Below, piece after piece: positions 6,572 through 45,896 of a DNA stretch of 64,000 nucleotides. A program made the translations under genes and the position numbers. The stretch's first letter is position 1; each line of letters begins with the position of its first letter. The notes beneath the pieces are model-generated. The model ran no database searches. It was not told where the DNA came from and saw only the letters and a program-made list of their open reading frames with translations. The stretch comes from an uncultured Planctomycetota bacterium (GTDB lineage Bacteria; Planctomycetota; Planctomycetia; Gemmatales; Gemmataceae), in contig CAWKHF010000004.1 of the NCBI GenBank assembly GCA_963849325.1, positions 448,001 through 512,000 on the forward strand, given 5' to 3'.

Positions 6572-7985
6572 ATGTCACGCATTCTTCTTGTGGTCGGTGC
6601 GGGCCGTTGCGGCCTGATCTCTTTTCTGGGCTTGCTCGCCAAGCAGCCCGGCACCAGCGCAAGCCTCGAAGAGCCGCCGCTGCTCCCCTGGAAGCGCGCT
6701 GCTGGCGACCAGGTGATCCGAGAGCGCTTCGCCCGTTTTCGGCGCAAGCGGCAAGCGAAGGTCCTCGTCGATGCCGCCAGCTTTTACCTGCCGTACCTGG
6801 CGGATGCCATCGCCGTCGAGCCGGACATCCGCATTGTCGGGTTGAAACGGCCTCGCGAGGAGGTCGTGGCCAGTTTCGAGCGTTTCCTGGATGAGTACAA
6901 CACCTTTCCCACCAACCATTGGGCCGAGGAGCCGACCGACGGCTTCACGCACGACTTGATCTGGACGCGGACGTTCCCCCAGTATCCCCTCGCGGACCGC
7001 GTCCAGGGCCTCGGCCGCTATTGGGACGACTATTACCAGGCTCTCGGGGAGTTGGCGGAGCGTTATCCACAAAACGTGCGCATCTTCGAGATGCACGGAA
7101 GTCTTGAATAGCGAGTCGGGCCAGTCGCAGGCGTTAACGTTCGCCGGGTATCCCGCCGAACAGCAGGTCATGCAACGTCGGTGTCCGCGCCCATCGCGTC
7201 AAGCCGCCTCCCCAGCGACCGCAAGCCAAACGTACCTTGTCGCGTGGCAAGCCGACCTGGGGGCTGAGCCACCCGCTCGACCCGGCCCGTTGCGTCGTGC
7301 TGGTCCCCTTCCTGGGTTCGATTCTGCCGCAATGCGAGGCGGGCCTGCGCGAGCTGGAAAAGCGGGGCTATCAGGTCCGCCGCGTCGGCGGCTTCTCGGC
7401 CATCGACCAGGGCCGCAACCAACTCGCCACCGACGCCCTTCTCGACGGCTTCGAGGAGACCATGTGGATCGACGCCGATATCGAGTTCCATCCCGACAGC
7501 GTGGACCGACTCCGCGGCCACGGCCTGCCCGTCGTCTGCGGCCTGTACCCGCAGAAGAAGTTCCGCGCCCTGACCAGCAAGCCGTTGCCGGGGACCGATT
7601 AGATCACCTTCGGCCAGAAAGGCGGCCTGGTCGAATTCCAGTACGTGGCCGCCGGCTTCCTGCTCGTTCGCCGCGAAGTCTACCTCAAAATCCAGTACCA
7701 GCTGGCCCTGCCGCTGGCCAACGAATGCTTCGGCTCGCCGGCCGTGCCGTTCTTCCAGTCGCTGGTCGCATCCGTTCGAGGACGGCCACTGGTATCTGGC
7801 CGAGGACTACGCCTTCTGCGAACGCGCCCGGCAATGCGGCTTCCGAGATCATCGCGGACACCACCATCCGCTTATGGCACATCGGCACGTATCCATACGG
7901 CTGGGAGGAATCGGGCAACGATCGGCAGCGGAGCGCGTCGTTTACTCTTCACGTTCGTGGAAAGCCCTCGAACCAGAAGCCGTAA
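6572..7985 (+). pseudogene. Sulfotransferase-like domain fused to GT-A glycosyltransferase domain; frameshifts and one in-frame TAG (7600-7602); possibly intact in vivo
   Basis: N-part VVGAGRCG...LKRPREEVVAS. C-part IDQGRNQL..MWIDADIEF (DxD)..AGFLLVRREV..YLAEDYAFCERAR..IIADTTIRLWHIG, spread over several frames. Confidence 0.75.
7960..7985. other. Left attachment junction (core TCGA 7968-7971) in the last codons of the glycosyltransferase gene
   Basis: AAG CCC TCG A joined to right flank GT TGA gives K-P-S-S-stop. The following ACC completes GGGATTCGAACC when joined to the right end. Confidence 0.65.
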
Positions 7986-8349
7986 TTCGGTCGTAATCGA
8001 GACGGGGTTTCTCCCCTCCCTCTGGCACCAGGACGGGCCATTGGAAAGGATGAACTCCGGGCACAGGAGCTTCCTACGGATAACTCTCGTAGCCCGCGAC
8101 CGCAGCAACCCGCTGCAATTCCTTTCGGAAAAGGATGCTAGGGCTGGCCGCCACGAGATAGCGTTACCGTCCAGGCGGGAACTCGATCCACAAATATTCC
8201 CCCTCCACGCTGACAGGATGGGAGCGATGATTCCTTCGGAAAACCGCAACAGACAAAGAAGGAAGAAGGGAATAGGAGTCTCTGGTTCCGCCCCCGGAAG
8301 GCTTCCGAGAGGCAGGTGAAGTTTCACCCGCGAGTTCCGCGTCCAGGAA

Positions 8350-11300
8350 TCATTCCAGGGCGGGGCCTTCGCTCTGTGCTGCCGCTCCCAAGCGAGGCGT
8401 TCCTGGAAGGTCAACGGCGGTTTGCCAGGTGAATTCGGGGCCGATTCCCGCACTACCCCCGCCTCTGTCACCGATGTGACATCGGCTCGCAGCGCTCCAT
8501 CCGATGACGGCGGTGATTCCATCCGGCGGCGAATGCGAGCGGTGATAGGTTCCTCGGCCGCTGCTTGCTTCCGTTGCCCGCGCTGTGGCGTGGCCTCGAT
8601 GGTGTGGGCGGCCTTCAGCGTCTTGATCCTATCGGCCAGCTCGTCAACCCTCGGCCCTTTGCCGTTGCCCTCCTCGTGGGCCGCTGCGGACAGGCCGGCT
8701 TTGAGCTGGTCACGCAGCTCGGTCAATTCCGAGAAATATCTGTCGTGCGGGAAGGACTTGCCCAGCCGTTCTCGATAGTCCCGCAGCTGGCTCTCGGCGA
8801 TGGACAGGTCTTGCCGGACGCGAGCGCATTCGGAACCGTAGCCGCCGGCCAGCCGTTCCAGGGCGTTGAGGACGGCACGCGGCCCTTGGTGGTCGCGCGA
8901 CAGCTCAGACTGACGGGTCATCGTGCCTTCCAGGTATACGTCCGGCGGGAATTGCGGATGTAGGACCAGGCCGAAGCGCAGACCCCGGTAGGTGCCGACG
9001 GGAACGCGGGTGGTGTCGCGGACGTGACGGGGCAAGTGGTCGAGCTGATCCGCCAGGACGGCGGTTACGTCCTCGCGGGACCAGGAACGCTTGCCGAGAG
9101 TGATCGGATCGCCGGCATGGGCCGTGGCGGTCGCCTCGTCGGCGGTGAGCTTCGACAGCCGTTCGGTAAGGTTCTCGATGGTCGAGGGCAAGTCGCGCAC
9201 GCTGCGGCGGGCGACGTATTGCTCGTCCAGGTGGTTCTTCTTCAGGAGGTTGAGCCGTTGCAGTTCGGCGTCGGCCTCGGCCAGTGTCAGCACGGCCGGG
9301 TTGCCCGAGGCAATCGCCTTGACCTCGGCATAGGAGAGTTCCTGACCGCCGATGTCCTCGGCGCGGCGGACGGCGCTCTCGCCGGTGATGACCTGGCCGA
9401 TAAAGCGGGCCTTGGTCTCCAGGGCTTGCCACATATAGGCGTCAAAGGAGCCTTCGGTGACGTAGCGGTAAATGGCCACTTCCTCGTTCTCGTTGCCTTG
9501 ACGCAGGATGCGGCCGTCGCGCTGCTCGACCTCGGCGGGTTTCCAGGGGCGTCCAGGTGATGCAAGGCCACCAGGCGTTTTTGGACGTTGGTGCCGGTGC
9601 CCATCTTCTGCGTACTGCCCAAGAGCACACGCACCGACCCCTGCCGTACTTTCTCGAAGAGGGCCTGCTTCTTGGCGTCGGATTCGGCATCGCCGATGGT
9701 GGCGATCTGCTCGCGGGGGATGCCGTGGGCGACCAGCTTCGCGATGATTTCGTCATAGGGCGAATAGCCCCACGGAGGTCGGGTTCACGCCCATGTCGGC
9801 GAAGATCATCTGCGTGCCGCGGTTGGCGGTAGTCTCCTTCCAGATGGAAAAGACGTTCTCGACCAGACGGTTGACCTTCGATTCCGGGAAATCCGGAGCC
9901 GTGGGCGACAGCATCCGGGCATCGGTGGCCAGCTTGCGGCCGTCGGTGGTAATGGCCAAGGCGTTATCGACGCGCGGGTCCACCTTCTGGGACCGCAGCC
10001 GCTCGTAGCGTTCCACCAGCTCCTGTTGCAGCTGGTGCTGCTCGTCGGACATGGGGCAGGCTACGATGATGGGCTTGCCGCCTTTCAGGCGCGGACGCGG
10101 CAGGTTCAGCATTTCCGCCGTCTGCACGTCGGAGAAGGAGCGGAACATCTGCTGGAGTTCCGGCAGGTTGGTGAAGCGGGCGAACCGGCTGCGCGGCCGC
10201 AGGCCCGCGCCGTCCGGCGAAATCTCCATCGTGTCCACCACCTCGCCGAAGGTGGCCGCCCAGGCGTCGAAGTGGTCGATGCCGCGGCTTTGCAGCCCAT
10301 GCGGATCGAGGAAGCGCTGCATCGTGTACATCTCGACCATCGTGTTGGTGATCGGCGTGCCGGTGGCAAAGGTGACGCCGTGGCCGGGATGCTGTTCGTC
10401 GAGGTAGCGGGCCTTCATGTATACGTCGAAGGCGCGTTCGCTGCCGCCGGTCTGGATGCCGGCGACGCGCTCCATCTTGGTCGGCGTCTCCAGGTTCTTG
10501 AAGTAGTGCGCCTCGTCGATGAAGACATGATCGATGCCCAACTCGTCGAAGACCAGCCCGTCGTCCTTCTTGTCCTCGGCCAGCAGGTCTTTCAGACGCT
10601 CGACGCGGGCCGCCTTCTGCTTCTCGATGGTCTTGATAAGGTTGCGGTTGGCGCCCTTGGTCGGCGGCGTGCTCGCGGAGCAGCTGGTCGTATTCGGCGA
10701 TTTGCTCGGTCAGGAACTTCTCCTGGTAATCCCGCGACATGCCAATGCGCTCGAAGCTGCTATGGGTCACGATGATGCCGTCCCAATCGCCGCTGGCGAT
10801 CTTGGCGGTCAGCATCTTGCGACGGTCACGGGTCAAATCCTCCTTGCTGGCGACCAGCAGCTTGGCATTGGGATAGAGCTGCATGAACTCGCGGGCGAAC
10901 TGCTCCAGCAGGTGGTTGGGCACCACGTACATGGGCTTCTTGATAAGGCCAGCCTGCTTCATCTTCATGCCGGTCGCGGCCATCGTGAAGGTCTTGCCGG
11001 CGCCGACGACGTGGGCGAGCAGCGTGTTGCCGCTGCTCATACCGCGCCAAACGGCATCGTCCTGGTGCGGCCGCAGGTGGATGGTCTGATTCATGCCGGG
11101 GAAGTCGAGATGTGAGCCGTCAAACAGCCGGGGCCGCAAATTGTTGTAGGTGTCGTTGTAGATGCGGACGAAACGCTCGGTGCGTTCGGGGTCGGTGAAC
11201 ACCCAGGAGCGGAAGCGTTCTTTGATGAGCTTTTGTTTCTCGCGGGCGGCCATCGTCGCTTCCTGGTTGACGACGCGCTCCTCGCGGTCGCCGTGGTCGA

Positions 11301-13415
11301 TGGTGTCGTAGATGGTGGGCGACTTCATGTTGAGGGCCAGTTCCAGCAGCCAGGTGCCGTTAGCCCTGGACGTGCCATACTCCGACGTGGCGGCCACGGA
11401 CGCCTTGGCGGCGTAGCCGGCGTCGAGGCTCCACACGGCGTCTTTTTTCAGGTGGGCGACCGGGACCGAGGACGGATCGACGTGGAACAGGTCGGCCGCG
11501 AATGCCTGGATGTCAGCTGGCCGGTATCCAGGGCGCGCCGAGGTTGGCGTCGATGTCGCCGGGCAGCACGTCCTCCGGCTGCACTTGCCGCAAGGCGTTG
11601 ACGTTGCGGAGGTATTGCGGCCCGGCCCGCTCGGCGGCGGCGAGTTTCGCCCGCACGTTGCCGGAGAGATAGGCGTCGGCCGTGTGCCAGGTTTTCGATT
11701 CCGGGTCGGGGAAGATCAGGTCGCCCAGCTCGGCGATGACCTGCTCCTCGGGCTTGCCGTAGAGGGACGCGATGATACGGCAGGTCCACCATGCCGCGCT
11801 GGTTGAGGGAGACGAGCAAGCCCTTCCTCGGCGGTCTGACGTGCGTGACGGGCGGCTTCTTGCCCACAACGTCCCGTATCATGATGGCGGCTTTGGCCGC
11901 CTTGCCCGTCACTTCGTCGTAGTCCTCCAGGGACATGACCAGCATGGCGTCCGGGTCTTCCCTGAATTTCACGAGGTTCGGCATCCGGCGGATGACCGTG
12001 CCGTCGGCGGTCTCGCCGAAGGTTGTCTTGTTGATCGGGCCGTAGGTGGCCGACGAAGCGGTCATAGGCCCAATTGAGCTCGCCGGCGGGCGTCGTCGCG
12101 GTGCGCTTCGGGCCAGCCCTCGTTCTGGGATTGCAGGACGCGGCGGGCGCGGTCGCGCAGGCCGATCAGGGCAGCCAGCCGCCTGCCGGTCATGGTGCCA
12201 TCGGCTTTCAGGGTGGTGCCGCCGTAGACCACAGGCACTCCCTGCCCGCCTTCCGATTGGTAAATGACGCGGTCGTCGCCGACGAAGAAACTGCCTTCGC
12301 TGATGTGCCGCTCGGGCGGCGGCGGAATGAAGGCCGGGGCCGGTTGCTCCTCGGCCTGCGACGGCTGGATCGGGTGCGAATTCGGGCAGGCGATCGATGG
12401 CTTCCTTGAGCTGGCTCGGCCAGCTCGCCATTGCCGTTGACGCTGTAGCCCTCGCCGTAGAGCGTGTCCTTGCGGCTCCAGGTGCCGAGGACCATTTCCG
12501 GATGGTTCAGGAAGTAGCGGTTGACCGGAACTTCTGCGCCATCGATGTCCAGCGGGGCGATGCCCAGCCATTCGGGATCGACATGGTGGGCGGGTTCGCC
12601 CCGGTGCACGCTTGCGAAGAAACACGATGTCGGTCACGACGGCGGTGCCTTCCCGCTTGAACGCATCGGATGGCAGGCGGATGCGCCGACGAAGTCGGCC
12701 TTGGAGGCGAGGTATTCGCGGATCGCGGCATTCTGCTTATCGAGGGTGAAATGCGATGTGACCAGGGCCAGGACGCCGCCGGGCTTCAGGGCGTCAACGG
12801 ATTTGGCGAAGAAGTAATCGTGCAGGGAGAGCTTCTGGCCGCGGTAGTCGAGCTTCAAGTCGGCGAAGGGCACGTTGCCGATCACGGCGTCGATGCGGCC
12901 CTCGGGCAGCTTGGTGTCGCGGAAGTTCTCGATGCGGATGTCCTGGTCGGGGTGCAGCGCCTTGGCGATGCGGCCGGAGATGGAGTCCAGTTCGACGCCG
13001 ATGAAGCGCGTCCCTTCCCTGCCCGGCTCATGAAGTTGCCGATGCCGCAGCCTGGCTCCAGTATCGTGGCGCCTGCCGGCACGCCGAAGCGGCCGATAGC
13101 CTCATGAATGGCGGAGATGACGGTCGGCGAAGTGTAGAAGGCGTTGAAGGTCGTGCGCTTGGCGCTGTCGTATTCCTCGGGGGTCAGCAGGGTCTTCAGT
13201 TCTTCGCCCAGGGCCTGCCAGCCGGCGTCCTTGTACTTGCCGTTGACAGGATCGGGAAAGATCGACAGGGCCACGGGCCCGAAGCCGGCGAAGCGGGCAA
13301 GGGTCTGCTTCTCCTCGGCCGTGGCCGCTCGCTGCTCCTCCTCGACGGTTTTCAGCGTGCGGATGGCGGCGAGAATGTCGCGGGCCTTGGCCTTTTCGCC
13401 GCTGGCAATGGTCAC
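8350..13415 (-). pseudogene. DarB-like N6-adenine methyltransferase / SNF2 helicase fusion, about ten or more frameshifts; ends approximate
   Basis: ILEPGCGIGNF, IGNVPF, LLAHVVGAGKT, IDEAH, GTGTNVQKRL and YVTEGSFD occur in order across successive frames. Confidence 0.85.
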
Positions 13416-14284: not shown

Positions 14285-14299
14285 GGAGCAGCGGCCGCC

Positions 14300-15640: not shown

Positions 15641-15647
15641 GGCCAAA

Positions 15648-16306: not shown

Positions 16307-16579
16307 TTACAGAATCGTGTTTCCGGATCCCTTGCTGACGGGATCGCCAGCGGTAGCCGTGCCCTGCTGATCCTTGGGCGGAAAGCGTTTCTCCAGAAGT
16401 CCTCGTACCACCTCGGCCATGTTCGCCCCTTCCAGAGCACACTGGCTCTTGACCCGCTGATGCAGGGACAGGGGAATGTCGATGGTCAACCGCTTCGTCG
16501 GCTCCCCCGATACCCATTCATCCGGCGAAGTCGCTGTGCGGCTGATGGTCGGCTTGCCGCCGAACGTCACCTTCTTCAT
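16307..16579 (-). CDS. parG: ParG-like ribbon-helix-helix partition protein
   Basis: KRLTIDIPLSLHQRVKSQCA..NMAEVVRGLL; overlaps the parA stop (ATGA). Confidence 0.8.
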   Translation of the reverse strand: MKKVTFGGKPTISRTATSPDEWVSGEPTKRLTIDIPLSLHQRVKSQCALEGANMAEVVRGLLEKRFPPKDQQGTATAGDPVSKGSGNTIL

Positions 16580-17205
16580 ACGGCCAACTCCATGATCTCA
16601 TCGACCAGTCCCATGAGTTCCTTGCCAGCCGGGTGGTCCGGGGCCGTCTCGAAGACGGTCTGCCCCTGGGCCGCAGACTCCGCCAGGGCAATACGCTGGC
16701 AAATGGCACTCTTCAGGACGGGGATCGGGTAATCGGCCAGGGCGTCCACGACATCCCGGCCCATCGCCGTATTCACGATTTTGCGATTGATCGCAAATGC
16801 GGATTTCAGGTTCGGCTTGAAGACCGTGGCTTCGTGAATCAGGTCGATGATCTCCTTGGCAGCCCATACGTCGTAAGGCGACGGCTGCACGGGCACCAGC
16901 ACCAGGTCGCTGGCCATGATGGCGGAGCGGGCCACGTCATAGACGCGCGGTGGGCCATCAATAATGACTGCATCAAAGCCTTGGGCAAGGCTGGGAAGCT
17001 CCTTGTGGATGGATGCTTTGGGCAGGCCGGCGACCGGGAACAGCGGTTCGCCCCGCCGGGCGGCTGCCCAATCCAGGGCTGATCCCTGGGGGTCGGCATC
17101 GACGAGCAGAACGCGGCGCCCGCGGCGCGACAGGGCGTCGGCGACGTGAATGGCGAGCGTGGTCTTGCCGACCCCGCCCTTTTGGTTGAGGAAACTGACG
17201 ATCAT
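16576..17205 (-). CDS. parA: Short (type Ib) ParA/ParF partition ATPase
   Basis: NQKGGVGKTT deviant Walker A, VDADPQGS, IIDGPP. Confidence 0.93.
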   Translation of the reverse strand: MIVSFLNQKGGVGKTTLAIHVADALSRRGRRVLLVDADPQGSALDWAAARRGEPLFPVAGLPKASIHKELPSLAQGFDAVIIDGPPRVYDVARSAIMASDLVLVPVQPSPYDVWAAKEIIDLIHEATVFKPNLKSAFAINRKIVNTAMGRDVVDALADYPIPVLKSAICQRIALAESAAQGQTVFETAPDHPAGKELMGLVDEIMELAV

Positions 17206-17221
17206 GAACACCTTCCAGAAA

Positions 17222-31004: not shown

Positions 31005-31139
31005 CCGTAGGTTGTTTGGCCTCGGCGGCAGCGTATGTGCTGGAGGTACGGGACTTCTTGTGTTTTATTAACGAATAGTAAACTTGTCTTATATATAGTT
31101 ATTATAGAGAGTATCGAGGTGCGAAGGAGCCCGCCTATA

Positions 31140-34100: not shown

Positions 34101-35669
34101 GGCAGCAGCATCACCACCAATGGCGGGGACATCTACCTGGGCGGCGGCACCCTTGACGGCTCCGATCATCCAACCGGGGCGGCCGTCGGCGATAACGTCG
34201 CATCGGGCATGAGCAGCGGCGTGTGGCTGTACGGGGCGACGCTCACCGCCGGCGCCGGCAATGTCAGCCTGTACGGCTCCGGCACCACCGGCCCGTTCGG
34301 CACTTATGACAACGGCATCCTGGTGTGGAATTCCAGCAGCATTTCCACGACGACCGGCAACATCACGCTGAACGGCTTCGGCTCGACTTCTCCCGGACCC
34401 GGTGTATGGGGCCATGACATCGGCGTTTTTGTCGATTCCTCCTCGCAGATCTCCACCGTCTCGGGGGCCGTCGGCATCACCGGCACCGGCTATGGCAATA
34501 TTGAGCTGGATCATGGGGTGGTGATCTCGGGCGATGTCCTCAGCACTGGCACCGGCAGCGGTGTCGGCAGCATCACCATCAAGGGCACCGGCTCGGCCCA
34601 TGCCATCGCCAGCAATGGCGTGGAGATACTGGCGGGCGCGAACATCACCTCGGTGGACGCCAATATCGCCATTACCGGCACGGCTCCAGGAAACACGGCC
34701 GGATCGGATAACAACGGCATTAATATCGGCATCGCCAATGATGCCGGCATCCAGAGCAACGCGGGCGGGGCCGTCATCGCCTCAACCGGCAAGGGCAACA
34801 TCATGCTGACCGCTACCGGCGGCGGCGATAGCGATATTGGAGATCTGTATTATTTCGGCGGCGCGCCCGGCAATGTCAGCACCATCGGCAATGCCGCGGG
34901 AACGGGCACCATCACCTTCAATGCCGACACGCTGCTCAACCCTCTCGACATCCAGGTGCAAACCGCCGGCCAGGTCGTCTTCCAGCCGCGCACCGCCTCC
35001 ACCACGGTTGGCGTAGCGGGAGGGGCTGGCACGCTGCAACTTACCAGCGGCCTCCTCAACAATATCACCGCCGGCGGCATCAGCATCGGCAACACGGCCG
35101 ATAGCGGCGCGATGAATGTCGGCGCGTATGCCTGGAATGCGCCCGTAAGCCTGCTCTCGGGCCGCGGCAGCATCGACATCGGCGGCGCTCAGGCGATGGG
35201 CGGCAATAGCTTCCTGGCCGATACCGTCGCGGGCAACATTACCCTGGATAGCGTCGCTTCGATCGCCAGCACGGCCACGGGCAACGCCATCACGCTGGCC
35301 GACAGCGGCGGCCATTTCCTCAACGCTGCCGGCAGCGATGCGCTCTGGGCATCCAAGGGCCGCTGGCTGGTCTATTCGACGACTCCGGCCGGGGACGTTC
35401 TGGGCGGATTGAACGGCACGTTCCTCCGCTTCTCCTGTAGCTATGGAGGTTCCTGCCCGCGTGTGCCTTCCACGGGCAATGGGCTGCTTTACCGTGCTAT
35501 GCTTCCCGGCACCGTGAGCAAAGGTTCCGGTGATCCAGTCCTCGGCCTGCCAGGCTTTCCGGTGCGGTTTCCTCCGGTCGGGCCAATGGACTTCGCCGAT
35601 CTCATTACGATGGATCATCGCATTGCCGCCGACCAGGCGTCACCGTTCCTGCTTGACGCTGGCCAATAG
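31140..35669 (+). CDS. TpsA filamentous haemagglutinin-family beta-helix exoprotein (start uncertain)
   Basis: AQA-NPQGGQV cleavage site, AVIDWRSFNI, LNRV, LVNPNG TPS domain, GGYVETSG, Gly/Asn/Thr repeats. Confidence 0.93.
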   Translation: MVNARHGFAPAAMHRNTALCSRAFFLLGVLGFSLPSPAQANPQGGQVAAGQASITSSGNTLNVTQSTDKAVIDWRSFNIAADERTAFHQPSSSAMALNRVNDLNPSQILGTLTANGHVVLVNPNGVFFGPSAKIDVAGLVATTANIANNDFLAGKLNFNQPGNPQAAIINQGTITAQEAGLVGLVAPVVENEGVITAKLGQVTLASGDSFTLDMAGDHLIEVAVTSELAQQLASNSGKIAADGGTVMLTAAAGRQLVDGVVSNSGAIEANSIGGTNGHIVLYAEGGNAVPGNVEADKSQVRGSSTAWSSGMLSASGSGSGAKGGTIEVLGDQVGLRSGSVLDVSGDAGGGTVRVGGDFHGQGTTPTALATVVQNGATINADARGAGNGGRVAVWSDSDTSFEGLISARGGLGGGNGGYVETSGKQILNMQGMVDASATQGQAGAWLMDPADAVIGSSDSNETGSAGSTSFTPDGTAATAFINAADIDASLNHGTSVTVATGGDSASGSGGGAITVASDIAKTAGSGATLTLSAATDIVVNNNVSISSTSGKLNTLFDANTAGNGGAIVLNPGATIASNGGDIYLGGGTLDGSGHPSGSAVGDAANPSGINLSYPILNSGSGNIVMSGTGYAGASGNDYGILMSGFEASPGVWTSGIMQTTTGNITLNGTGGNSTNSNYGVWLGVALVTTQNGAIAVNGAGAGNGYANYGIYNFVSSVQATGTGSITLSGTAPATGTFHGVGVDIEGTLGGSPVISSVNGNIAITGTGQGWANEDNAGITLYNNPSSTYYPSIYTTGTGHITLTGISGNGNPGIYARAGTVQIGGGSDSGNITLNADTLSLDDTATTAIQTSGTVLFAPYTAGATIGFSGGAGTLQVTQAILDAVNAPTVTVGSTSAGALTTGAFNWEHTLDNLNLIGGSVEVGGNITKGVDDASVANSASGTLTVQSNTDITQDSNAAIASSGSYGKLNTLFDADVAGGEGAILMNTGSSITTNGGDIYLGGGTLDGSDHPTGAAVGDNVASGMSSGVWLYGATLTAGAGNVSLYGSGTTGPFGTYDNGILVWNSSSISTTTGNITLNGFGSTSPGPGVWGHDIGVFVDSSSQISTVSGAVGITGTGYGNIELDHGVVISGDVLSTGTGSGVGSITIKGTGSAHAIASNGVEILAGANITSVDANIAITGTAPGNTAGSDNNGINIGIANDAGIQSNAGGAVIASTGKGNIMLTATGGGDSDIGDLYYFGGAPGNVSTIGNAAGTGTITFNADTLLNPLDIQVQTAGQVVFQPRTASTTVGVAGGAGTLQLTSGLLNNITAGGISIGNTADSGAMNVGAYAWNAPVSLLSGRGSIDIGGAQAMGGNSFLADTVAGNITLDSVASIASTATGNAITLADSGGHFLNAAGSDALWASKGRWLVYSTTPAGDVLGGLNGTFLRFSCSYGGSCPRVPSTGNGLLYRAMLPGTVSKGSGDPVLGLPGFPVRFPPVGPMDFADLITMDHRIAADQASPFLLDAGQ

Positions 35670-35794
35670 TCGTACCTCCGGTCAAAAGATGTCTGCGGAC
35701 GACGGAAGGTGTACCTTTTGTCGGAGTTCATCAATCGGCAGTCCTGCTTCACTTTATTGGTGACAAAAGGTAGGTGACAGAATATCCTCGCCGG

Positions 35795-36895
35795 ATGGAT
35801 GGCCAGACCGTCAACGTCGTAGGGTACGCCCGCATTTCTTCCGCCGATCAATCCGAAGACGGTCAGGCCGACGCGCTTCGCCGTGCCGGGGCGTCCCGGG
35901 TCGTCGTGGAGAAAGCATCCGGGGTCGCCGAGCGTCCGCTGCTGGATGAGTTGCTCTCGGGCCTGCGGTTCGGTGACGCTCTGGCGGTCACGGAAGTCAG
36001 CCGGCTCGGCCGCACGGTGCATGCAATCCTGCTGCTCGCCGATGATCTGCGACGGCGTGGCGTGCATCTCCGCATTCTGAACCTCGGCATCGACACTGGG
36101 ACGCCAGCCGGCGAGCTGGTGCTCACGCTGATGGCCGGCCTCGCCAAGTTTGAGCGCGATCTGCTGCGGGAGCGGCAGAGGCGGGGCATCGACGCCGCCC
36201 GCAAAAGAGGGAAACACCTCGGTCGTCCGCCGGCCCTGACGGCCGACCATGCGGAGACAGCGATTAGCCGGCTTCAGACAGAAAGCCTGGCGGTCATCGC
36301 CAGCGAATGGCGGGTTTCAGAGCGGACGCTTTCCCGCCTGGTGAAGAAGCATGCCGGGGACAGACCCTTGCCGCTCGCGCCCGGCGGAAAAGGGAAGGCG
36401 AAGCGGCGGGGACGGATTAACCAGACTGGAGTAATACCGATGGACAACTTGCTTACCATTTCTTTGGAAGCCCAAAACCCCGACCGAAACCATCATCGAC
36501 GCTACGAAATCCGGCTCGGCCGCGATCTCTTCGGCCAGTGGACGGTTGGTCTGCTCTACGGCCGCGTGGGGCGAGCGGGCCAGATGGTGCGTCATTCCGG
36601 TCCCGACCCAAAACGGCTCCGGCAGGTCATCCACGAAAGTCTGCGTCGCCGGCTCTCCGCACCCAAGCGGATCGGCTGCCCGTACCAGTTGATCGGGTGG
36701 AGCGCGGCTGCGGATATCGACATCGGCTTCTGGCTTCCGGCGGACACCCTGGCGGCGTTCGTCCCACCGACCGCCGTCCACAGCAGCGGGGACTCGCATG
36801 ACGAGTGCCGATCAGGGTCTGCGAGTTCGCCGGTTTCGGGGCGGTCACGCCGGACTTTCCCCACAGGCACAGCTCGCCTGGCTCCCCGCGGATAA
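35795..36895 (+). CDS. Resolvase/invertase in frame with a WGR-like domain (internal start at 36440)
   Basis: GYARISS, SRLGR, AKFER..RERQ..GRPP, HTH; then MDNLL..RRYEIRLGRDLFGQWTV..YGRVG. Confidence 0.85.
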   Translation: MDGQTVNVVGYARISSADQSEDGQADALRRAGASRVVVEKASGVAERPLLDELLSGLRFGDALAVTEVSRLGRTVHAILLLADDLRRRGVHLRILNLGIDTGTPAGELVLTLMAGLAKFERDLLRERQRRGIDAARKRGKHLGRPPALTADHAETAISRLQTESLAVIASEWRVSERTLSRLVKKHAGDRPLPLAPGGKGKAKRRGRINQTGVIPMDNLLTISLEAQNPDRNHHRRYEIRLGRDLFGQWTVGLLYGRVGRAGQMVRHSGPDPKRLRQVIHESLRRRLSAPKRIGCPYQLIGWSAAADIDIGFWLPADTLAAFVPPTAVHSSGDSHDECRSGSASSPVSGRSRRTFPTGTARLAPRG

Positions 36896-39384: not shown

Positions 39385-39619
39385 CCTGGATCGCGCGCGG
39401 CGCACCATCGACAATCCCAAGAAGGCTGCCATTAATTCATGCGGATGGAGCGACAGCCCCGGTCGCCGGTGCGAGGGGGCAGCTTCTTCGCAGGAAGCGC
39501 CCTGGATGGAAGGGGACGCCACACCGCAACCCCACCTTCCTTTAGCGGCGGAAAAGTCTCTCCGACACTCCTGATGCGGCAGAAAAGCGATCGAAAATCG
39601 CCCCGTGGAGGGTACGTAC

Positions 39620-40411
39620 ATGGCTGGCTGGCAGATGAAGCAGATGAGGCCCAAGGACATCGTGGTCAACCCGCAGGTCCGCAAGGCTTCCGATCCCCAA
39701 GCGCAGGAGGAACTCAACGCCTCGGTGAAGGCATGGGGCATTCTCCAGCCCTTGCTCGTGATGGCGTCCGGCGTTCTCCTGGCGGGGCATCGCCGTCTTC
39801 TCGCGGCCCTGGCCGCAGGACTGGAAACCGTTCCCGTCATTGTCACGGATCGCCTGCTTTCGGACAGCGAAGTTCGCGTGATCCAGCTCACCGAGAACAT
39901 TCATCGGGCCGACCTGACCGGCTACGAGAAGTGGCTCGGCTGTGCGGAGCTGATGTCCATGAACCCGCACTGGCAGCTCAAGGACCTGGCGGCACACCTG
40001 CACTTCGACCCCTCGATGGTGACGCGGCTGCTCAGCCCGTCGAAGTGCATCCCAGCCTGGCAGGAGGCCCTGAAGGCGGGCAAGGTCGGCATCTCCGACT
40101 GCTACGCCGCCTCGAAGCTGGAGGAGAAGGAACAGGCCGAGCTGCTGGCGCTGAAGCTCAGTGGTGCCAGCCGCGACGCCATCGAGCAGGCGGGCCGGAG
40201 GAATCGCACCAAGGCTACCCCCGCAGTCCGGCTGTCGCGCGTGAAGATCGCCATGCCGCAGGGGGCGAGCGTCGTCGTCAGCAGAAACAACCTGAGCATG
40301 GCCGACGTGGTGGAGCTGCTCGCAGAAACGCTCAAAGAGGCCCGCAAGGCCGCCGAGCAGTACGACGTGAAAACCTTTCAAAGCATGATGAAGGACAAGG
40401 CGAAGGGCTGA
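39620..40411 (+). CDS. ParB/RepB/Spo0J family protein
   Basis: GILQPLLV, AGHRRLLA, ENIHRADL, HTH. Confidence 0.9.
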   Translation: MAGWQMKQMRPKDIVVNPQVRKASDPQAQEELNASVKAWGILQPLLVMASGVLLAGHRRLLAALAAGLETVPVIVTDRLLSDSEVRVIQLTENIHRADLTGYEKWLGCAELMSMNPHWQLKDLAAHLHFDPSMVTRLLSPSKCIPAWQEALKAGKVGISDCYAASKLEEKEQAELLALKLSGASRDAIEQAGRRNRTKATPAVRLSRVKIAMPQGASVVVSRNNLSMADVVELLAETLKEARKAAEQYDVKTFQSMMKDKAKG

Positions 40412-40413
40412 AC

Positions 40414-40767: not shown

Positions 40768-40967
40768 TGGCGATCAACCCGCGCCTGCAACACGAGACGG
40801 CTTTTGCCCTGGCCACCGCCTTGCTCGACCTCGTGCGCAACTGCATCCGTGAAGAGGAACGGCGGGATGCGTTCGCGGCGTTTTACGAAGCGTGCCGGGC
40901 CGGGATCGAGGCCCATGACGTTCGGCGACAAAGAATGCAGACACGACTGCACCCCTTTAACAACTGA
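40767..40967 (+). CDS. Small hypothetical protein
   Basis: Translationally coupled; MAINPRLQHETAF... Confidence 0.65.
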   Translation: MAINPRLQHETAFALATALLDLVRNCIREEERRDAFAAFYEACRAGIEAHDVRRQRMQTRLHPFNN

Positions 40968-40980
40968 AACGGAGGAAACC

Positions 40981-42699
40981 ATGTACAAGGCTCTGCGTTG
41001 TCTCCTGATTCTCACCGTGCTGCTCCTGGCGTACCTGGCCGTCCTGGTGCTTTACCAGGTGCCCTACGCCTGGCTTCTGGCCGCCGGCATCGGCGTCGTA
41101 CTGCTGTACCGGAAGACCTACCGCTACACCGCCTATGGCACCGCCCGCTGGGCGGACGCCACCGACATCTCGCACCTGCTCGAAGGCAACGGCCTGATCC
41201 TCGGCCACATCCAGGGCAAGCCGGACAAATCGCGCGGCACCCTGGCGCTGTTCGACCGGAACCTTCCGGCGCGGGCCGCCTGCCAGAAGTTCCTGATGGC
41301 GTTCCAGCGGAAGCCGCCCAAGTTCCTGGTCCGGCTGACCAAGGCCGTTCACACCGCGATCTTCGCGCCGACGGGCGTGGGCAAGGGCGTATCGTGCGTC
41401 ATCCCGTTCCTGAAGACGTGCCCCGACAGTTGCGTGGTCGTGGACTTTAAGGGCGAGAACTACCTGGAAACGGCCGCGGATCGTCGGCGGATAGGGCACA
41501 AAGTCGTCCTTCTCGATCCGTACCGGATCGTCACTCACGAGCCGGACACTTTCAACCCGCTTCAGTTTATCGACCGGGAATCGCCTACCGCCATTGACGA
41601 GTGCCGCGACCTGGCCGAGGCGCTCGTGGTCCGGACGGGTCAGGAGAAGGACCCGCACTGGAACGACTCGGCGGAGGTTTGGATTTCGGCCATGACGGCG
41701 GGTGTTGTGGCCTTCGCCTACGACGCCGACAAGTCGCTGCAATCGGTTCGGAGAGTGCTCACCGATCCGCAGCGGATGGAAGCGGTCATCAAGCTGTTGT
41801 GCGAATCGGACGTATGGGACGGGATGCTCGCCCGCCTCGGCGGCCAGCTGACGAATTTCAAGGACAAGGAGCTGTCCTCGACGCTCACGACCACGAACCG
41901 CTTTATGCGGTTTTTGGACACCATCGCGGTCGCGGAGAGCACCAGGCAGAGCAGCTTTAACCCGGCCGACCTGCTCACCGGCAAGATGACCGTGTACCTG
42001 GTCCTGCCGCCCGAACACATGCGGGCACAGTCGCCGCTCTTGCGGCTGTGGATCGGCTCTCTCCTCCGCGCCGTGGTCCAGGGCGGCTTGCAGGAGAAGA
42101 CCAAGGTGCATTTCGTCCTCGACGAGGCGGCCTCCCTCGGCCACATGGAGGCCCTCGACGACGCGGTGGACAAGTTCCGCGGCTACGGGGTGCGGCTCCA
42201 GCTTTACTACCAGTCCATCGGGCAGCTCCAGAAGTGCTGGCCGGATGGGGGCGCCACGACCCTGCTTTCCAACACCACGCAAGTGTTCTTCGGCGTCAAC
42301 GACCCGCAGACCGCGGGGTACGTTTCGTCCCGGCTCGGCGAGGAGACGATCATCGTGGAGAGCGGAGGGACCAGTTCGAGCACCACCCGGCAAGCCTCCC
42401 AGCAGGGAAGCGGCAACACCAGCCATTCCACCAGCACCAACGAAAACTGGCAGCAGATCGGCCGGAAGCTGCTCAAGCCGGAAGAGGTCGAAGCGCTTGA
42501 TCCGCGGGTGGCGATCACGTTCGCTCCCGGCACGCCGCCCATCTGGACCTGGCTGGTCCGGTACTACGAACACGATTTCGGCCGGCCGCAGGGCTTGGGG
42601 CCGGTGAAGGCCGCCTTTGACGCGGCGTGCCTGTTCCTGGCGGCCGGCCTGCTCTCCGTCTGGTGGACGGCGGCGCTGTTCTACCACACCTTCCAGTGA
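40981..42699 (+). CDS. virD4: VirD4/TraG type IV coupling protein
   Basis: Two N-terminal TM segments, YGTARWA, APTGVGKG, VDFKGEN, FVLDEAASLG, QSIGQL. Confidence 0.93.
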   Translation: MYKALRCLLILTVLLLAYLAVLVLYQVPYAWLLAAGIGVVLLYRKTYRYTAYGTARWADATDISHLLEGNGLILGHIQGKPDKSRGTLALFDRNLPARAACQKFLMAFQRKPPKFLVRLTKAVHTAIFAPTGVGKGVSCVIPFLKTCPDSCVVVDFKGENYLETAADRRRIGHKVVLLDPYRIVTHEPDTFNPLQFIDRESPTAIDECRDLAEALVVRTGQEKDPHWNDSAEVWISAMTAGVVAFAYDADKSLQSVRRVLTDPQRMEAVIKLLCESDVWDGMLARLGGQLTNFKDKELSSTLTTTNRFMRFLDTIAVAESTRQSSFNPADLLTGKMTVYLVLPPEHMRAQSPLLRLWIGSLLRAVVQGGLQEKTKVHFVLDEAASLGHMEALDDAVDKFRGYGVRLQLYYQSIGQLQKCWPDGGATTLLSNTTQVFFGVNDPQTAGYVSSRLGEETIIVESGGTSSSTTRQASQQGSGNTSHSTSTNENWQQIGRKLLKPEEVEALDPRVAITFAPGTPPIWTWLVRYYEHDFGRPQGLGPVKAAFDAACLFLAAGLLSVWWTAALFYHTFQ

Positions 42700-42874
42700 A
42701 AGGGGTGCCCAATGTCAGCACGGCGGAAGTGGCAAAGTGTCAAGGTGGCAAGGATAGAGCGCTATCAAGAGCCGCGCCCGATGGTCAGGCTCGCGCGCGC
42801 GGCGCACAATCGACAACCCTGATCATGAGCTTACGATTGAGTCAGTGAGGGAAAACCAGACTGTGAGGCGAACG

Positions 42875-43162
42875 ATGTCCAAGCAAACGAAAGAGTTTTT
42901 CGAGCAGCTCCGGGCCGGCCAACAGCCGACCCTGCTGGAGTCCATCCGGGAGGCCGCGGGCGCCCTCAAGGAAGCGGGGGGACAGCTCTGGGACGGTATG
43001 AGGCCCATGTTCGACCACGGCCGCACGGAGGCCGCCGCTGCCCTGTTCGCCGGGCACGCCCATGTCATGTACATGAAGGGGCCGGAGGGCAACGAGCAGG
43101 GGCAGGATCTGGTCAGGGACGAGCCGCACAAGCAGCAGGAGATCAGCGGCCGCGAAATGTAG
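42875..43162 (+). CDS. Hypothetical protein
   Basis: GAGG RBS; MSKQTKEFFEQLR...SGREM. Confidence 0.65.
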   Translation: MSKQTKEFFEQLRAGQQPTLLESIREAAGALKEAGGQLWDGMRPMFDHGRTEAAAALFAGHAHVMYMKGPEGNEQGQDLVRDEPHKQQEISGREM

Positions 43163-43222
43163 TCGCGGCAGCAACTTTCAACCACAACGTCACCTTTTTT
43201 CCCTTTTTTCAAGGAGTTCCTC

Positions 43223-43393
43223 ATGAACCTGTTCGCCGAAGCGTCCGAGAGCAACCCCCTGGCGGTCCTCATTGTCCTGTTCCTCATGATGATGGGCATC
43301 CGGCAGTGGGGCATCTGGCTCAAAGGCAACACCGTCGTCCGTAGCGCGGCCAAGAAGGGTGTCCTCAGCATCCTGGGCCGCATGTTCAAGTGA
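43223..43393 (+). CDS. 56-aa membrane peptide (below the ORF-track cutoff)
   Basis: AAGGAG RBS; MNLFAEASESNPLAVLIVLFLMMMGIRQWGIWLKGNTVVRSAAKKGVLSILGRMFK. Confidence 0.7.
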   Translation: MNLFAEASESNPLAVLIVLFLMMMGIRQWGIWLKGNTVVRSAAKKGVLSILGRMFK

Positions 43394-43403
43394 GGAGGCC
43401 GCC

Positions 43404-43571
43404 ATGCTGTTCGCCGCTACCCTTGGCGAGCATTGCTTCAACCTGATGCTCGCCCTGTTCCTGCTCTTGGCCTTCGCGTTCAAGATCCTCACCGCCATCG
43501 ATGATGACGGCGCGATCAAGAAGACGGCCAACGAGGGCATCGCCGCGTGGATCACACGTTGGCTGAAGTAA
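43404..43571 (+). CDS. 55-aa membrane peptide with similar architecture to the preceding one
   Basis: GAGGAGG RBS; MLFAATLGEHCFNLMLALFLLLAFAFKIL...EGIAAWITRWLK. Confidence 0.7.
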   Translation: MLFAATLGEHCFNLMLALFLLLAFAFKILTAIDDDGAIKKTANEGIAAWITRWLK

Positions 43572-43773
43572 CCCACCAGCGCGGGGTGCGCCCAGCCCCG
43601 CCTCTTCGTTCCGGAGCGGTGAGATGGCGTGGCTCCTGTTCCTTGTCCTGTACGGTGCGCCGCGGAGCGGGGTAGTGGATGACGTGGCGGATGCTGCGAA
43701 GTAGTGTGTGATCCGCTTCTTGATCCACTGGCTGAAGTAGCCGAGGCGTGTCTCGTTTTTCAGGGGGTGCGGC

Positions 43774-44034
43774 ATGACCGTTGAGGAAAGGCTGGAGCGC
43801 ATGGAGGCCATGCTCGCCGCCCTGGTCGAGCGGCAGACCGCGCCGGAGTGGTATACCACGGAGCAAATCGCCCAACTCGTCGGCAGGGCCGAGTTCACCG
43901 TCCGGGAATGGTGCCGGCGCAGGCGCATCCAGGCACAGAAGAAGGACAGCGGTCGCGGTGCCCATGCCTCGTGGGTCATCTCCCATACCGAGTTGCTGCG
44001 TTACCAGCGCGAAGGTTTGTTGCGTAGTCGCTGA
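43774..44034 (+). CDS. Excisionase-like HTH protein (candidate recombination directionality factor)
   Basis: WYTTEQIAQLVGRAEFTVREWCRRRRI..WVISHTEL. Confidence 0.8.
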   Translation: MTVEERLERMEAMLAALVERQTAPEWYTTEQIAQLVGRAEFTVREWCRRRRIQAQKKDSGRGAHASWVISHTELLRYQREGLLRSR

Positions 44035-44136
44035 TCCGCAACGCCACGCGCGACCTGATCTTCCCCTCTGGTGGGGAGCCGTGGAGCGTGCGCGCTCATC
44101 GAGGATTTCTTGCCCTGGTAGCGGTGGTTTCCCGTC

Positions 44137-44361
44137 ATGTCTCGAAGCAATCGAAAGAAGGATTGTCAAGTCGCGGAGGATGCTCGACCGGGCATCGTTC
44201 CGGCCGAGACACCGGATTGGATCACACCGGAATTGATCGCAGCGACGATTCGCGTCTGGCAACCGTACTACCCAGCTACTCTCACGCCCGAAGAAGCCGT
44301 TACAATGATCTTGAACGTGGGTCGCTTATTGGACGTGCTATCTTCGGGGGCATCGCCATGA
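44137..44361 (+). CDS. Small hypothetical protein coupled to the recombinase
   Basis: PDWITPELIAATIRVWQPYY; ATGA overlap with the recombinase start. Confidence 0.65.
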   Translation: MSRSNRKKDCQVAEDARPGIVPAETPDWITPELIAATIRVWQPYYPATLTPEEAVTMILNVGRLLDVLSSGASP

Positions 44362-45896
44362 AACAGTTCGTCGCGTTGGCACGGGTGAGCAGTCGGGAAC
44401 AGGAACGCGAGGGCTTCTCGCTCGAAGTACAGGAAGAAGCGCTCCAACGCTACGCCACGCAGGCCGGTGGCGAAATCGTCAAGCTCTTCAAGATTGCCGA
44501 GACGGCCAGCAAGGCCGATGAACGCAAAACCTTCCGCGAGTTGATCGCCTACGCCAAGAAGAATGCACCCTTCCTCGATGGCCTGCTCTTCTACAAGGTA
44601 GACCGGGCCGCTCGCAATCTCTTCGATTACGTCGAGCTGGAACGGCTGGAATCGGAATACGACCTGCCGTTCATCTCCATTTCGCAACCGACCGAGAACA
44701 CGCCCGCCGGCCGCATGATGCGGCGGACGCTGGCTAACATGGCCAGCTTCTACACCGAACAGCAATCGGTCGATGTCCGCGAAGGGCTGGCTCGTCGCGT
44801 GCAAGAAGGCTGGTTCGTCGGCCCCGCTCCCTACGGCTACCGCAACGTCCGCAAGGATGGTCGCGGCATCATCGAGATCAACCCGGAAGCCGCTGCCAAC
44901 GTCCAACGCATCTTCCATCTCTACGCCTACGAGAACGTAACGCTCGATGGCTTGGTGGCGCGGGTCAATACCGAGGGCCGCGTCTTCCGTCCCTCGCAAC
45001 CCCGGTTCCCGCGCAGCATGGTCTACACCATCCTGAAGGACCGAGCCTATATCGGTGAAATCCTCCACAAAGGCCAATGGTATCCGGGCAAGCAGCAACC
45101 GCTGATCGACCGGGCGACCTGGGACCGCGTGCAGGCGTTGCTGGGCGGGCATATCTATCAGTCGCACACGCTGACCTATGCCAGCGGCCTGATTCAATGC
45201 GGTCATTGCGGGCATCCGGTTACCGGCGAGAAGGTCAAGAAGAAGACGAAGACGAGCGAGCGGTTCTACACCTACTACCGTTGCACCGGCTACACCAAGC
45301 CGGGGCATCCGCGTATCCGGGTTACGGAAGCCGATCTCGACCAGCAAGTGCTGGCCGTCTTCGACAAGATGCGTGTGGAAGACGAAGGGGTGCGTGACTG
45401 GTTCCGGCTGGTGCTGGCCTCGCAGACGCGCAATGCGCAAGCCCAATCGCTGGCTCAACGCGGCGAGCTTCAGCGTCAAGAGACGTTGTTGGTGCAGCAG
45501 CAGGATCGCCTGCTCAACCTGCGGTTGTCGGAGGACATCGATCAGGAGACGTTCGCCCGCAAACATACGGAGTTGCGGGATCGATTGGCTGCACTCAAGC
45601 TGCGACTGGAGACCGTGGATCGCTGCCACGACGAAACGGCCGAGTTAGCGGCAAAAGTGTTTGAACTTTCGCAAACCTTGCGTCAGCAATGGCTTACGGC
45701 CGATTATGCCGCCAAGCGTCGCATCCTGGAAATCGTGTTTTTGAACTGCTGTCTCGATGACATAACTCTTGTCCCCACCATGAGAAAGCCCTTCGACGTT
45801 CTCGCCGAAGGGCCGCTTTTGGAAAAAAGCGGAGAGGACGGGATTCGAGTTGAGGGCGAACGCAAGTTCTTACCGGAGGAGGTGGTGCGACAGTAA
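44358..45896 (+). CDS. Large serine recombinase (integrase)
   Basis: ARVSS catalytic motif, KVDRAAR, APYGY, CGHCG/YYRC zinc ribbon, coiled coil. Confidence 0.95.
   Translation: MKQFVALARVSSREQEREGFSLEVQEEALQRYATQAGGEIVKLFKIAETASKADERKTFRELIAYAKKNAPFLDGLLFYKVDRAARNLFDYVELERLESEYDLPFISISQPTENTPAGRMMRRTLANMASFYTEQQSVDVREGLARRVQEGWFVGPAPYGYRNVRKDGRGIIEINPEAAANVQRIFHLYAYENVTLDGLVARVNTEGRVFRPSQPRFPRSMVYTILKDRAYIGEILHKGQWYPGKQQPLIDRATWDRVQALLGGHIYQSHTLTYASGLIQCGHCGHPVTGEKVKKKTKTSERFYTYYRCTGYTKPGHPRIRVTEADLDQQVLAVFDKMRVEDEGVRDWFRLVLASQTRNAQAQSLAQRGELQRQETLLVQQQDRLLNLRLSEDIDQETFARKHTELRDRLAALKLRLETVDRCHDETAELAAKVFELSQTLRQQWLTADYAAKRRILEIVFLNCCLDDITLVPTMRKPFDVLAEGPLLEKSGEDGIRVEGERKFLPEEVVRQ
45830..45848 (-). 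other. tRNA-Ser-like 3' fragment at the right attachment junction
   Basis: Minus strand TCGAATCCCGTCCTCTCCG = T-loop, T-stem 3' strand, CCTCTCC acceptor strand and discriminator G; no 5' tRNA half is adjacent. Confidence 0.7.

Follow-up and report, generated by a model that had tools for sequence, protein, structure and literature searches.

A probable 58-kb mobilizable island of a tRNA-targeting serine recombinase family in a Gemmataceae genome, and its candidate tRNA-mimicking terminus

The stretch of DNA considered here (the window) comprises 64,000 nucleotides of contig C4 (C4:448001-512000) in the genome of an uncultured bacterium of the Gemmataceae, designated G000, which amounts to 8.16 Mb in 14 contigs. 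ARAGORN predicts 92 tRNA genes in this genome and no complete tRNA gene anywhere in the 64-kb window. A 20-nt fragment of a tRNA-Ser gene lies at the end of a large serine recombinase (LSR) gene, and comparison of this locus with its paralogs and with related genomes (given below by their G numbers) makes it probable that the LSR gene marks one side of an integrative mobilizable element (IME) of about 58.0 kb, which would run from C4:435,846 to C4:493,828 (window -12,154 to 45,828), would have recombined at a tRNA 3′ boundary, and would end on its far side in a terminus that mimics the 3′-end of a tRNA. An initial annotation of the same DNA had put the left end at 7968, within the final codons of a gene taken for a glycosyltransferase (GT). 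The features on which the argument turns are as follows, in window coordinates.

1 to 45828, no strand: window share of the putative element of about 58.0 kb; the remainder is 12,154 nt past the left edge, to C4:435,846.
44088 to 45896, plus strand: LSR, intact open reading frame (ORF) of 602 aa, with the Pfam domains Resolvase, Recombinase and Zn_ribbon_recom.
45829 to 45848, minus strand: 20-nt 3′ fragment of tRNA-Ser(GCT), spanning T-loop to 3′-end, 20/20 to C9:487419-487438.
8341 to 9479, minus strand: last conserved backbone gene, without family match, recognised from the alignment of six copies.
7968 to 7971, no strand: TCGA, the left end proposed initially; no terminus detectable.
7104 to 7985, plus strand: pseudogene of a GT-like/methyltransferase-fusion family, with frame breaks relative to the paralog at C13:34.6-35.2k.

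The product of the recombinase gene fits the domain order of large serine recombinases, from resolvase through recombinase to zinc ribbon, with scores on 44088-45893 of E 2e-22 for PF00239, E 6.6e-12 for PF07508 and E 3.2e-10 for PF13408; its matches to CcrB/XisF-type models of NCBIfam are weak and fall under the cut-off. The final codons of this gene cross the junction, run antisense to the tRNA fragment and then continue through 48 nt of flank, the codons for ...SGEDGIR being the antisense of the tRNA 3′-end and T-loop. The fragment is identical at all 20 positions to the 3′-end of the host's own tRNA-Ser(GCT) gene (C9:487349-487438), a resemblance that is real and far beyond chance, and the comparison with the host tRNA-Ser genes called for by the initial annotation has in this respect borne it out.

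Homologs of the LSR (E<=1e-40) are present in 42 of 201 sampled genomes of the order, and the sites of the 30 loci returned fall into several groups. In 18 of these 30 the 3′-end of the LSR gene is convergent with, and overlaps, the 3′-end of a tRNA gene (tRNA-Pro in 13 cases, tRNA-Ser in 4, tRNA-Ala in 1); only the last 17-24 nt of a tRNA stand at the LSR end in five, the window included, and a tRNA 3′ half beginning at the anticodon arm in four, while two loci are cut by contig ends and one is not assessable. The family clearly targets tRNA 3′-ends, and the broad claim made initially, that of a mobile element driven by a serine recombinase of a tRNA-targeting family, holds with the 18 overlapping loci.

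A BLAST search of the window against its own genome located related elements on contigs C6, C1, C5, C10, C9 and C7, and LSR homologs on C4, C6 and C1 only. The C6 copy matches 42765-45848 at 98.3% identity and stops exactly at 45848, inside a tRNA-Ser(TGA) gene (C6:380342-380429, complement). Between the two LSR genes there are 11 substitutions in 1761 nt and one frame-breaking 1-nt insertion in the C6 copy; the substitutions amount to 4 in the 20 nt of the tRNA-like tail versus 7 in the 1741 nt outside it, and the C6 version of the tail matches its own tRNA-Ser(TGA). The LSR gene on C1 is broken by a 1.5-kb insertion (C1:908-2420) of which G000 has four near-identical copies. Further copies of this insertion stand on C5, C2 and C6 at 99.9% identity and one on C12 at 78%, and it is presumably an active insertion sequence (IS). 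The final base of contig C9 is exactly that of tRNA-Ser(GCT), and contig C1 opens exactly with the LSR-proximal arm of the family; it is very probable that the decayed C1 copy sits in the cognate tRNA-Ser(GCT) site. The C4 copy adjoins a bare 20-nt fragment of that tRNA and not a complete gene, and 45829-45848 is most likely target DNA (the B arm half-site of the bacterial attachment site, attB) lying beside the LSR end, rather than DNA of the element. The initial annotation had joined the two proposed ends into a tRNA-Ser-like 3′-end and had read the product as the attachment site carried by the element (attP): the likeness stands, at 23/23 identity to tRNA-Ser(GCT), and the attP reading is not supported, since the 20-mer reads as target DNA.

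Contig ends at tRNA genes are not confined to C9. Several G000 contigs break at such genes (C9, C1, C3, C11, C14, C12); C3 terminates at a tRNA-Pro 3′-end, C12 terminates inside a tRNA, and tRNA-Ser(CGA) is split in its anticodon loop between C11 and C14, which suggests assembly forks at island attachment sites. On C5 (C5:1106117-1106278), tRNA-Ser(CGA) is followed after 4 nt by a 71-nt tRNA-like sequence with a similar 3′-end, which may be a relic of an integration event.

The opposite end was approached from the tails, that is, the tRNA-like sequences at the LSR side of each element. Direct repeats of the LSR-side tail were found neither in G000, G027, G116, G099 and G073 nor in five further genomes; the far-side copy does not repeat the target and so escapes such a search. 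Relaxed scans turned up two far-side copies at 14/15 identity, one at C1:61,429, beside the chromosomal gene gnd, and one in G073, 52.6 kb from the LSR, the same motif, which starts with AAAAAGTTC, standing before each. From these two far ends a 19-nt pattern was built, which matches G000 only at C1:61,414, C4:435,859 and C6:306,271, in all three cases with the orientation of the tRNA or tRNA fragment next to it; its reversed control gives no match. The C4 terminus (C4:435,846-435,877, minus strand) has the same sense as the tRNA-like 20-mer; it has about 310 nt in common with the C6 terminus at high identity, the two diverging 3 nt past the tail-like 15-mer, and the C1 terminus shares its last ~65 nt with both. 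Fifty nucleotides past the C1 terminus and just upstream of gnd (C1:61,477-61,510) there is a tRNA-like remnant whose T-arm resembles tRNA-Ser(GGA).

A profile of eight termini, run with nhmmer, matches G000 only at C6:306,258-306,376, C4:435,846-435,964 and C1:61,328-61,445, with E values around 1e-26 (2.8e-26 for the C4 match, which is the only one on that contig); in the window it gives no match near 7968 even at E<=10 with all filters off. In the host's family, an extended terminus pattern has 120 matches in 67 of 252 genomes, compared with about 16 for the reversed control. Among elements lying on long enough contigs, a terminus is found in the right orientation 52-74 kb from the LSR end in seven out of seven (G000 C4, C6 and C1, G073, G099, G116 and G050); the distance is 73.7 kb in G099, 68.7 kb in G116 and 53.9 kb in G050, besides the 52.6 kb of G073. 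The DNA between the last backbone gene and the terminus that is not shared measures 18-33 kb in C4, C6, C1 and G073, and about 12 kb in G099. Given the fact that a terminus was found at C4:435,846 and none near 7968, the element is therefore taken to extend, in all probability, from C4:435,846 to window position 45828, about 58.0 kb.

Tandem and decayed forms of the family occur elsewhere. In G050 (G050:C27:65,731-65,800; L257) a terminus is directly followed by the LSR-proximal arm of a second element, a tandem array with an attP-like junction. In G008, a genus relative without LSR homolog, ~130 nt of an LSR 3′-end, with nothing else of the gene, follow tRNA-Ser(TGA) (G008:C123; L107, about 3050-3230), and tRNA-Ser(GCT) has two terminus motifs downstream of it, at distances of 2.9 and 5 kb (G008:C42:8,998-11,072); these remnants belong to the same family in decayed form.

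The initial annotation had arrived at a different extent, namely a 37.9-kb element from 7968 to 45848 with the crossover at TCGA, an attP containing a copy of tRNA-Ser from the T-loop to the 3′-end, and a secondary integration site in a glycosyltransferase gene. TCGA is indeed present at both positions (7968-7971 and 45845-45848) and the joined ends give the 23/23 match, and the homology of the backbone to other copies stops only ~370 nt from 7968. What supports the left end itself is one 7-mer, GGTTCGA, expected 0.027-0.036 times in the candidate stretch of 380-500 nt (about 0.03), which is suggestive but weak. A crossover in the T-loop and a 3′ copy within the integrase gene also have a precedent in the ssrA islands of Dehalococcoides (PMC3146451), as described in the passages of that paper used here. 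Against this extent stands the terminus profile, which is blank at 7968 even at E<=10, whereas an intact and correctly oriented terminus lies at C4:435,846-435,964, 12.15 kb left of the window and 20 kb beyond the proposed end. The terminus motif pattern, with up to 3 mismatches allowed, is absent from the window, and the P arm implied by a left end at 7968 finds only chance-level matches in G000, G073 and G099. Moreover, the arms of an attP reconstructed at any TC/TT junction in 7850-8450 show no symmetry above that of shuffles, and by inspection the proposed pseudo-attB bears no resemblance to a tRNA beyond TCGA. The GCCCTC/GAGGGC dyad of the joined flanks carries little: by folding energy, the joined 60-mer comes 159th in a set of 646 alternative left junctions, and 15% of right partners drawn at random do equally well. 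Further, the far-side tails described below start after the T-loop and appear to be borne by the element, and the 20-mer varies with the target. Homologous elements do end elsewhere, as the relatives' termini 52-74 kb from the LSR demonstrate, and we regard the 37.9-kb extent as highly improbable.

The gene that this model takes as target fares no better. ORF 7104-7985 has no Pfam match at E<=0.001, and is a pseudogene because, relative to an intact paralog on C13, it contains an in-frame stop near 7603 and frame changes near 7770 and 7850. The paralog is itself a 649-aa fusion, in which the N-terminal domain, the part homologous to 7104-7985, has no family match, the middle domain gives the sole glycosyltransferase signal, below threshold at E 0.0065, and the C-terminal domain is clearly a methyltransferase. 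In favour of the initial view, some GT-like homologs end 3-19 residues past the motif where ORF 7104-7985 ends, and a natural stop near its end is plausible. Since the ORF is a pseudogene, in what appears to be the cargo of the element, the argument that a living gene was spared by a replacement stop codon becomes moot, and with the ends lying elsewhere the precision claimed for them falls as well.

The border between backbone and cargo can be followed in the last conserved backbone gene. Homology among the paralogous copies starts at the stop codon of the 8341-9479 gene; in C4 the stop that ends the C6, C7 and C1 copies is missing, and the ORF continues to 7872, a read-through of ~155 codons of unique DNA that crosses the left end proposed at 7968. 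The 370 nt between ~8340 and 7968 are likewise unique to the C4 copy. From the position of the terminus, everything left of 8340 in the window is read as part of a variable cargo slot of ~20.5 kb, which holds the GT-like pseudogene, a sulfotransferase, a giant repeat protein and IS fragments, and which is then closed by the conserved terminus.

Several points weigh against the 58-kb element and its tRNA-boundary crossover. Both ends rest on comparison with paralogs and relatives, the searches described below having yielded neither an empty site nor a circle junction of the C4 copy. The count of seven out of seven termini covers elements on sufficiently long contigs, and G027, which belongs to another family of the order, was left out of the terminus search. 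The C4 cargo, from 8340 to the terminus, is common to no other copy except for its last ~310 nt. Tandem junctions such as that of G050 would need recombination at non-canonical pairs of sites if the crossover lies at the tRNA boundary. In addition, the reconstructed attP has no clear arm dyad beyond A/T runs and only weak arm-to-arm symmetry. Finally, the 20-nt fragment stands isolated, and the rest of C4 yielded no 5′ portion of a tRNA-Ser.

The unshared cargo leaves room for a composite, in which a backbone from 8340 to 45828 with a decayed far end near 7970 would have inserted beside an older island, by now without LSR but with the GT pseudogene, the sulfotransferase and the giant repeat protein, that owns the C4:435,846 terminus, so that only the outer ends could recombine. 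Window 1-8340 and C4:435,9xx-448,000 are indeed common to no other copy save for those ~310 nt, a fragment at 8126-8219 resembles a gene located ~160 nt inside the terminus of the G118 element, the sequence 7959-7973 can be forced into the terminus register GTTCNA-N7-TCC, and tandem arrays of the same element family exist in G050 and G008. Such forcing permits two different weak alignments near 7968, where the terminus profile stays blank at E<=10, and left of 7968 there is no LSR remnant of the kind expected at the start of a tandem partner. Four other elements of the family, moreover, show the same layout of backbone, long cargo and terminus, and we consider the composite unlikely.

Direct traces of the uninterrupted site were sought in several ways. 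The two flanks, searched in 40 relatives and at protein level in the genus, yielded no syntenic locus, and both are specific to G000 among the relatives searched. The tRNA array left of the terminus is kept in 4 of 10 genus relatives, and the 640 nt beside the terminus are not. A 26-mer of the left flank has no match in metagenome contigs, where a 27-mer of the LSR end has two, both being ordinary tRNA-Ser genes followed by a T run; the 20-mer itself occurs in more than 118 ordinary tRNA-Ser genes across phyla in genome contigs and is uninformative. One contig carries two copies of the 20-mer, 6 kb apart, and no LSR homolog. The surroundings of tRNA-Ser(GCT) and tRNA-Ser(TGA) are rearranged in the genus relatives; G007 has an empty tRNA-Ser(TGA) site, but the gene downstream of it is on a different contig in G000. 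G118 has a tail-only locus, the flank of which is not kept in other members of its genus.

If it is target DNA, the 20-mer lay, before insertion, between the downstream region of an injection-system operon and the DNA that is now at C4:435,845, which is 670 nt from the conserved tRNA array. It was considered whether the injection-system region is itself an earlier island, and this was rejected, as the right end of C4 has only metabolic genes and IS transposases, with no integrase or tRNA-Ser. It is our speculation that a fragment of about one half-site in length may suffice for the enzyme on that side.

The question of where the strands are exchanged turns on the two tails. The far-side tail is identical in C4 and C6 and matches neither of their targets, the tRNA-Ser(GCT) fragment and tRNA-Ser(TGA); one version of it recurs in dozens of genomes of many genera, and between the far-side and LSR-side tails of G099, G116 and G050 there are 4-5 mismatches in 15 nt. 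In C1, the tail beside the LSR is the same as the native tail found throughout the genus in LSR-free tRNA-Ser(GCT) genes, from which the far-side copy departs by 1 nt. These patterns indicate that the far-side tail is probably borne by the element and that the LSR-side tail follows the host tRNA. The crossover would then not lie at TCGA, because the far-side tails start after the T-loop and appear to be element-borne. The bases common to both junctions confine the exchange to the last 6-8 bases of the tRNA and the following T, and both junctions have the same boundary dinucleotide in all seven elements (CT, or AT in G099).

The tails would have the opposite roles if the same 58-kb element recombined as the Dehalococcoides islands are read to do, that is, with the crossover at the 5′ edge of the tail (T-loop/T-stem), the LSR-side tail borne by the element and the far-side tail being the displaced native end. 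The two tails are 14/15 identical in C1 and G073, tandem arrays would form more easily, and this is the published reading for the ssrA islands in the portion of that account used here (PMC3146451). A displaced native end is not, however, what C4 and C6 show with their identical tails that fit neither target, and the far-side tails of G099, G116 and G050 would not pair with the 5′ halves of the tRNAs. In C1, it is the LSR-side tail and not the far-side one that equals the genus-wide native sequence. We judge this arrangement improbable.

An exchange at the tRNA 3′ boundary remains our preferred reading, and the register of the terminus fits it. The distance from the start of the motif GTTCRA to the boundary dinucleotide is 21 nt in the tRNA and 26 nt in eight termini. 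It is known for serine integrases that the zinc-ribbon-domain motif of attB stands 5 bp nearer to the crossover than that of attP, and that the minimal attB is ~10 bp shorter (Rutherford et al., 2013; PMC3783163, in the parts consulted). We read the far terminus as an attP arm modelled on the tRNA arm of attB and offset by the 5-bp register shift known for these enzymes. In the scenario that we favour, the natural attB of the LSR family would be the 3′-end of a tRNA gene for Pro, Ser or Ala, and strands would be exchanged in the last few bases of the tRNA or at its 3′ boundary, the precise base being our inference. The tRNA would thereby stay native, and any duplication of the target would be no longer than the crossover. 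The far terminus would be the P arm of attP, an element-borne mimic of the tRNA 3′-end whose T-loop-like GTTCRA is displaced away from the crossover by exactly 5 bp relative to a genuine tRNA. The C4 copy would have integrated beside the bare 20-nt 3′ fragment of tRNA-Ser(GCT), possibly a relic.

The remaining content of the element, from Pfam and NCBIfam scans of the 71 ORFs of the window and 16 ORFs of the 12 kb to its left, is listed below from right to left.

40804 to 42699, plus strand: type IV coupling protein, TraG/VirD4-like (Pfam T4SS-DNA_transf E 7.9e-68; NCBIfam TraG/VirD4 models).
39605 to 40411, plus strand: protein with a ParB N-terminal domain (Pfam ParB_N E 1e-13).
35774 to 36895, plus strand: small serine recombinase, resolvase domain plus WGR (Pfam Resolvase E 1.6e-36, WGR E 5e-6).
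29262 to 35669, plus strand: two-partner secretion pair (Pfam POTRA_2, ShlB, TPS), with a ShlB/FhaC-type transporter at 29262-31004 and a 1544-aa TPS-domain exoprotein at 31035-35669.
25522 to 28218, plus strand: MOBF (TrwC/TraI-type) relaxase-helicase (Pfam TrwC E 1.4e-72, AAA_30; NCBIfam MobF E 1.6e-60, above cut-off).
16307 to 17211, minus strand: partition pair (Pfam AAA_31/CbiA/ParA; ParG E 7.5e-5), with a ParA-type ATPase at 16576-17211 and a ParG-like protein at 16307-16579.
9753 to 11436, minus strand: SNF2/ResIII-type helicase in two overlapping ORFs in different frames (Pfam ResIII E 2e-7, SNF2-rel_dom E 8.9e-5).
3 to 6315, minus strand: cargo by Pfam scan and self-alignment, the 3′ part of a giant internally repetitive ORF (3-4982) and a sulfotransferase (5467-6315).

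Ankyrin-repeat proteins and a response regulator are also encoded in the element according to these scans. No VirB4-type or other pore family of a type IV secretion system (T4SS) is recognised in the scanned ORFs, many of which are without family match and could include unrecognised pore genes. The element has its own integrase and a relaxase with no recognised mating-pore gene, and is therefore classed as an IME and not as a phage; its mobilization would presumably depend on a helper conjugative element, and the small serine recombinase may have a part of its own to play. The split SNF2/ResIII helicase is kept in the copies on C6, C1, C5 and C10 and in G073 and G099, and its split form points to a frameshift or a programmed feature. 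The homologs of G073 and G099 likewise align in two pieces. The giant minus-strand ORF, which extends to ~C4:441.7k (441.7k-452.98k), consists of diverged tandem repeats with a period of ~400 nt and units 65-78% identical, and has no meaningful family match.

Right of the element, a cluster for a contractile injection system, or phage-tail-like structure, occupies the minus strand at 47775-64000 (DUF6519, Baseplate_J, gp25, Phage_base_V, CIS_tube); a homolog of its DUF6519 protein was sought in 10 genus relatives, and none reached E<=1e-20. An 80-nt repeat at 46538-46617 has at least 12 copies, at 93-99% identity, on seven G000 contigs. It often matches both strands at one place and is thus palindromic, similar to repetitive extragenic palindromes (REP) or miniature inverted-repeat transposable elements (MITE), and weaker copies occur in genus relatives.

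Among known systems the closest are the ssrA-specific genomic islands of Dehalococcoides, whose integrase DsiB is a CcrB-like large serine recombinase (McMurdie et al., 2011; PMC3146451); this comparison, like those below, draws on parts of the published accounts. Both have the LSR gene beside an RNA gene and reading towards it, with ~20 nt of the 3′-end of the RNA gene embedded in the 3′-end of their own LSR gene, and both the islands and the family of the C4 element are mobilizable and have a small serine recombinase, a ParB-domain gene, variable cargo and tandem arrays. The target is tmRNA in the ssrA islands, whereas it is tRNA-Pro, -Ser and -Ala in the family described here; the far end is a true 20-bp direct repeat of the target in the former, and in the latter, by our reading, an element-borne mimic with a 5-bp shift; the crossover is placed in the T-loop in the former and would lie at the tRNA 3′ boundary in the latter. 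The MOBF relaxase and coupling protein of the C4 element also count as a difference. In short, the C4 element shares with the ssrA islands the 3′-end copy of the target embedded in the LSR gene, and its family lacks their true ~20-bp far repeat and T-loop crossover. What appears new relative to these islands is the choice of tRNA-Pro, -Ser and -Ala as targets, the relaxase and coupling protein, the lack of a true target repeat, and the tRNA-end-mimic terminus.

The phage-type integrases A118/LI, Bxb1 and phiC31 resemble the C4 LSR in their domain set, in a very short crossover identity and in the 5-bp motif offset between attB and attP (PMC3783163). They differ in having protein-coding or intergenic targets and roughly palindromic attP arms, whereas the C4 LSR would use a tRNA as attB arm and an attP arm that copies it, with weak arm symmetry. 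No recombination directionality factor was identified in the C4 element. Islands with tyrosine integrases likewise land at tRNA genes and have partial tRNA copies at their borders, but they duplicate the 3′ part of the tRNA as a direct repeat, which the C4 family does not. A preprint on Prochlorococcus islands includes a minority with large serine recombinases, without detail on attachment sites in the parts consulted, and in the portions of the literature on Planctomycetes consulted we found no report of such a family of integrative serine-recombinase elements with a relaxase.

What remains of the finding is a well-delimited family of serine-integrase islands, and the original claim has for the most part been corrected and not confirmed. 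Repeat-based island finders would miss or mis-delimit such islands, which land at tRNA 3′-ends and leave no direct repeats, as the first reading of this locus shows. The attachment sites are short, defined and testable in vitro, and a tRNA-end mimic with a 5-bp shift offers a natural test case for the current structural model of attP/attB discrimination and illustrates how specificity for a site can move from one tRNA species to another. In a broader sense, we lean slightly towards the view that these are widespread mobilizable islands in which the attB arm would be the universal segment of tRNA from the T-loop to the 3′-end and the attP arm its counterfeit, shifted by 5 bp, so that no tRNA would be duplicated or replaced, and a single enzyme lineage could use the tRNAs for Pro, Ser and Ala, or even a 20-nt relic on its own.

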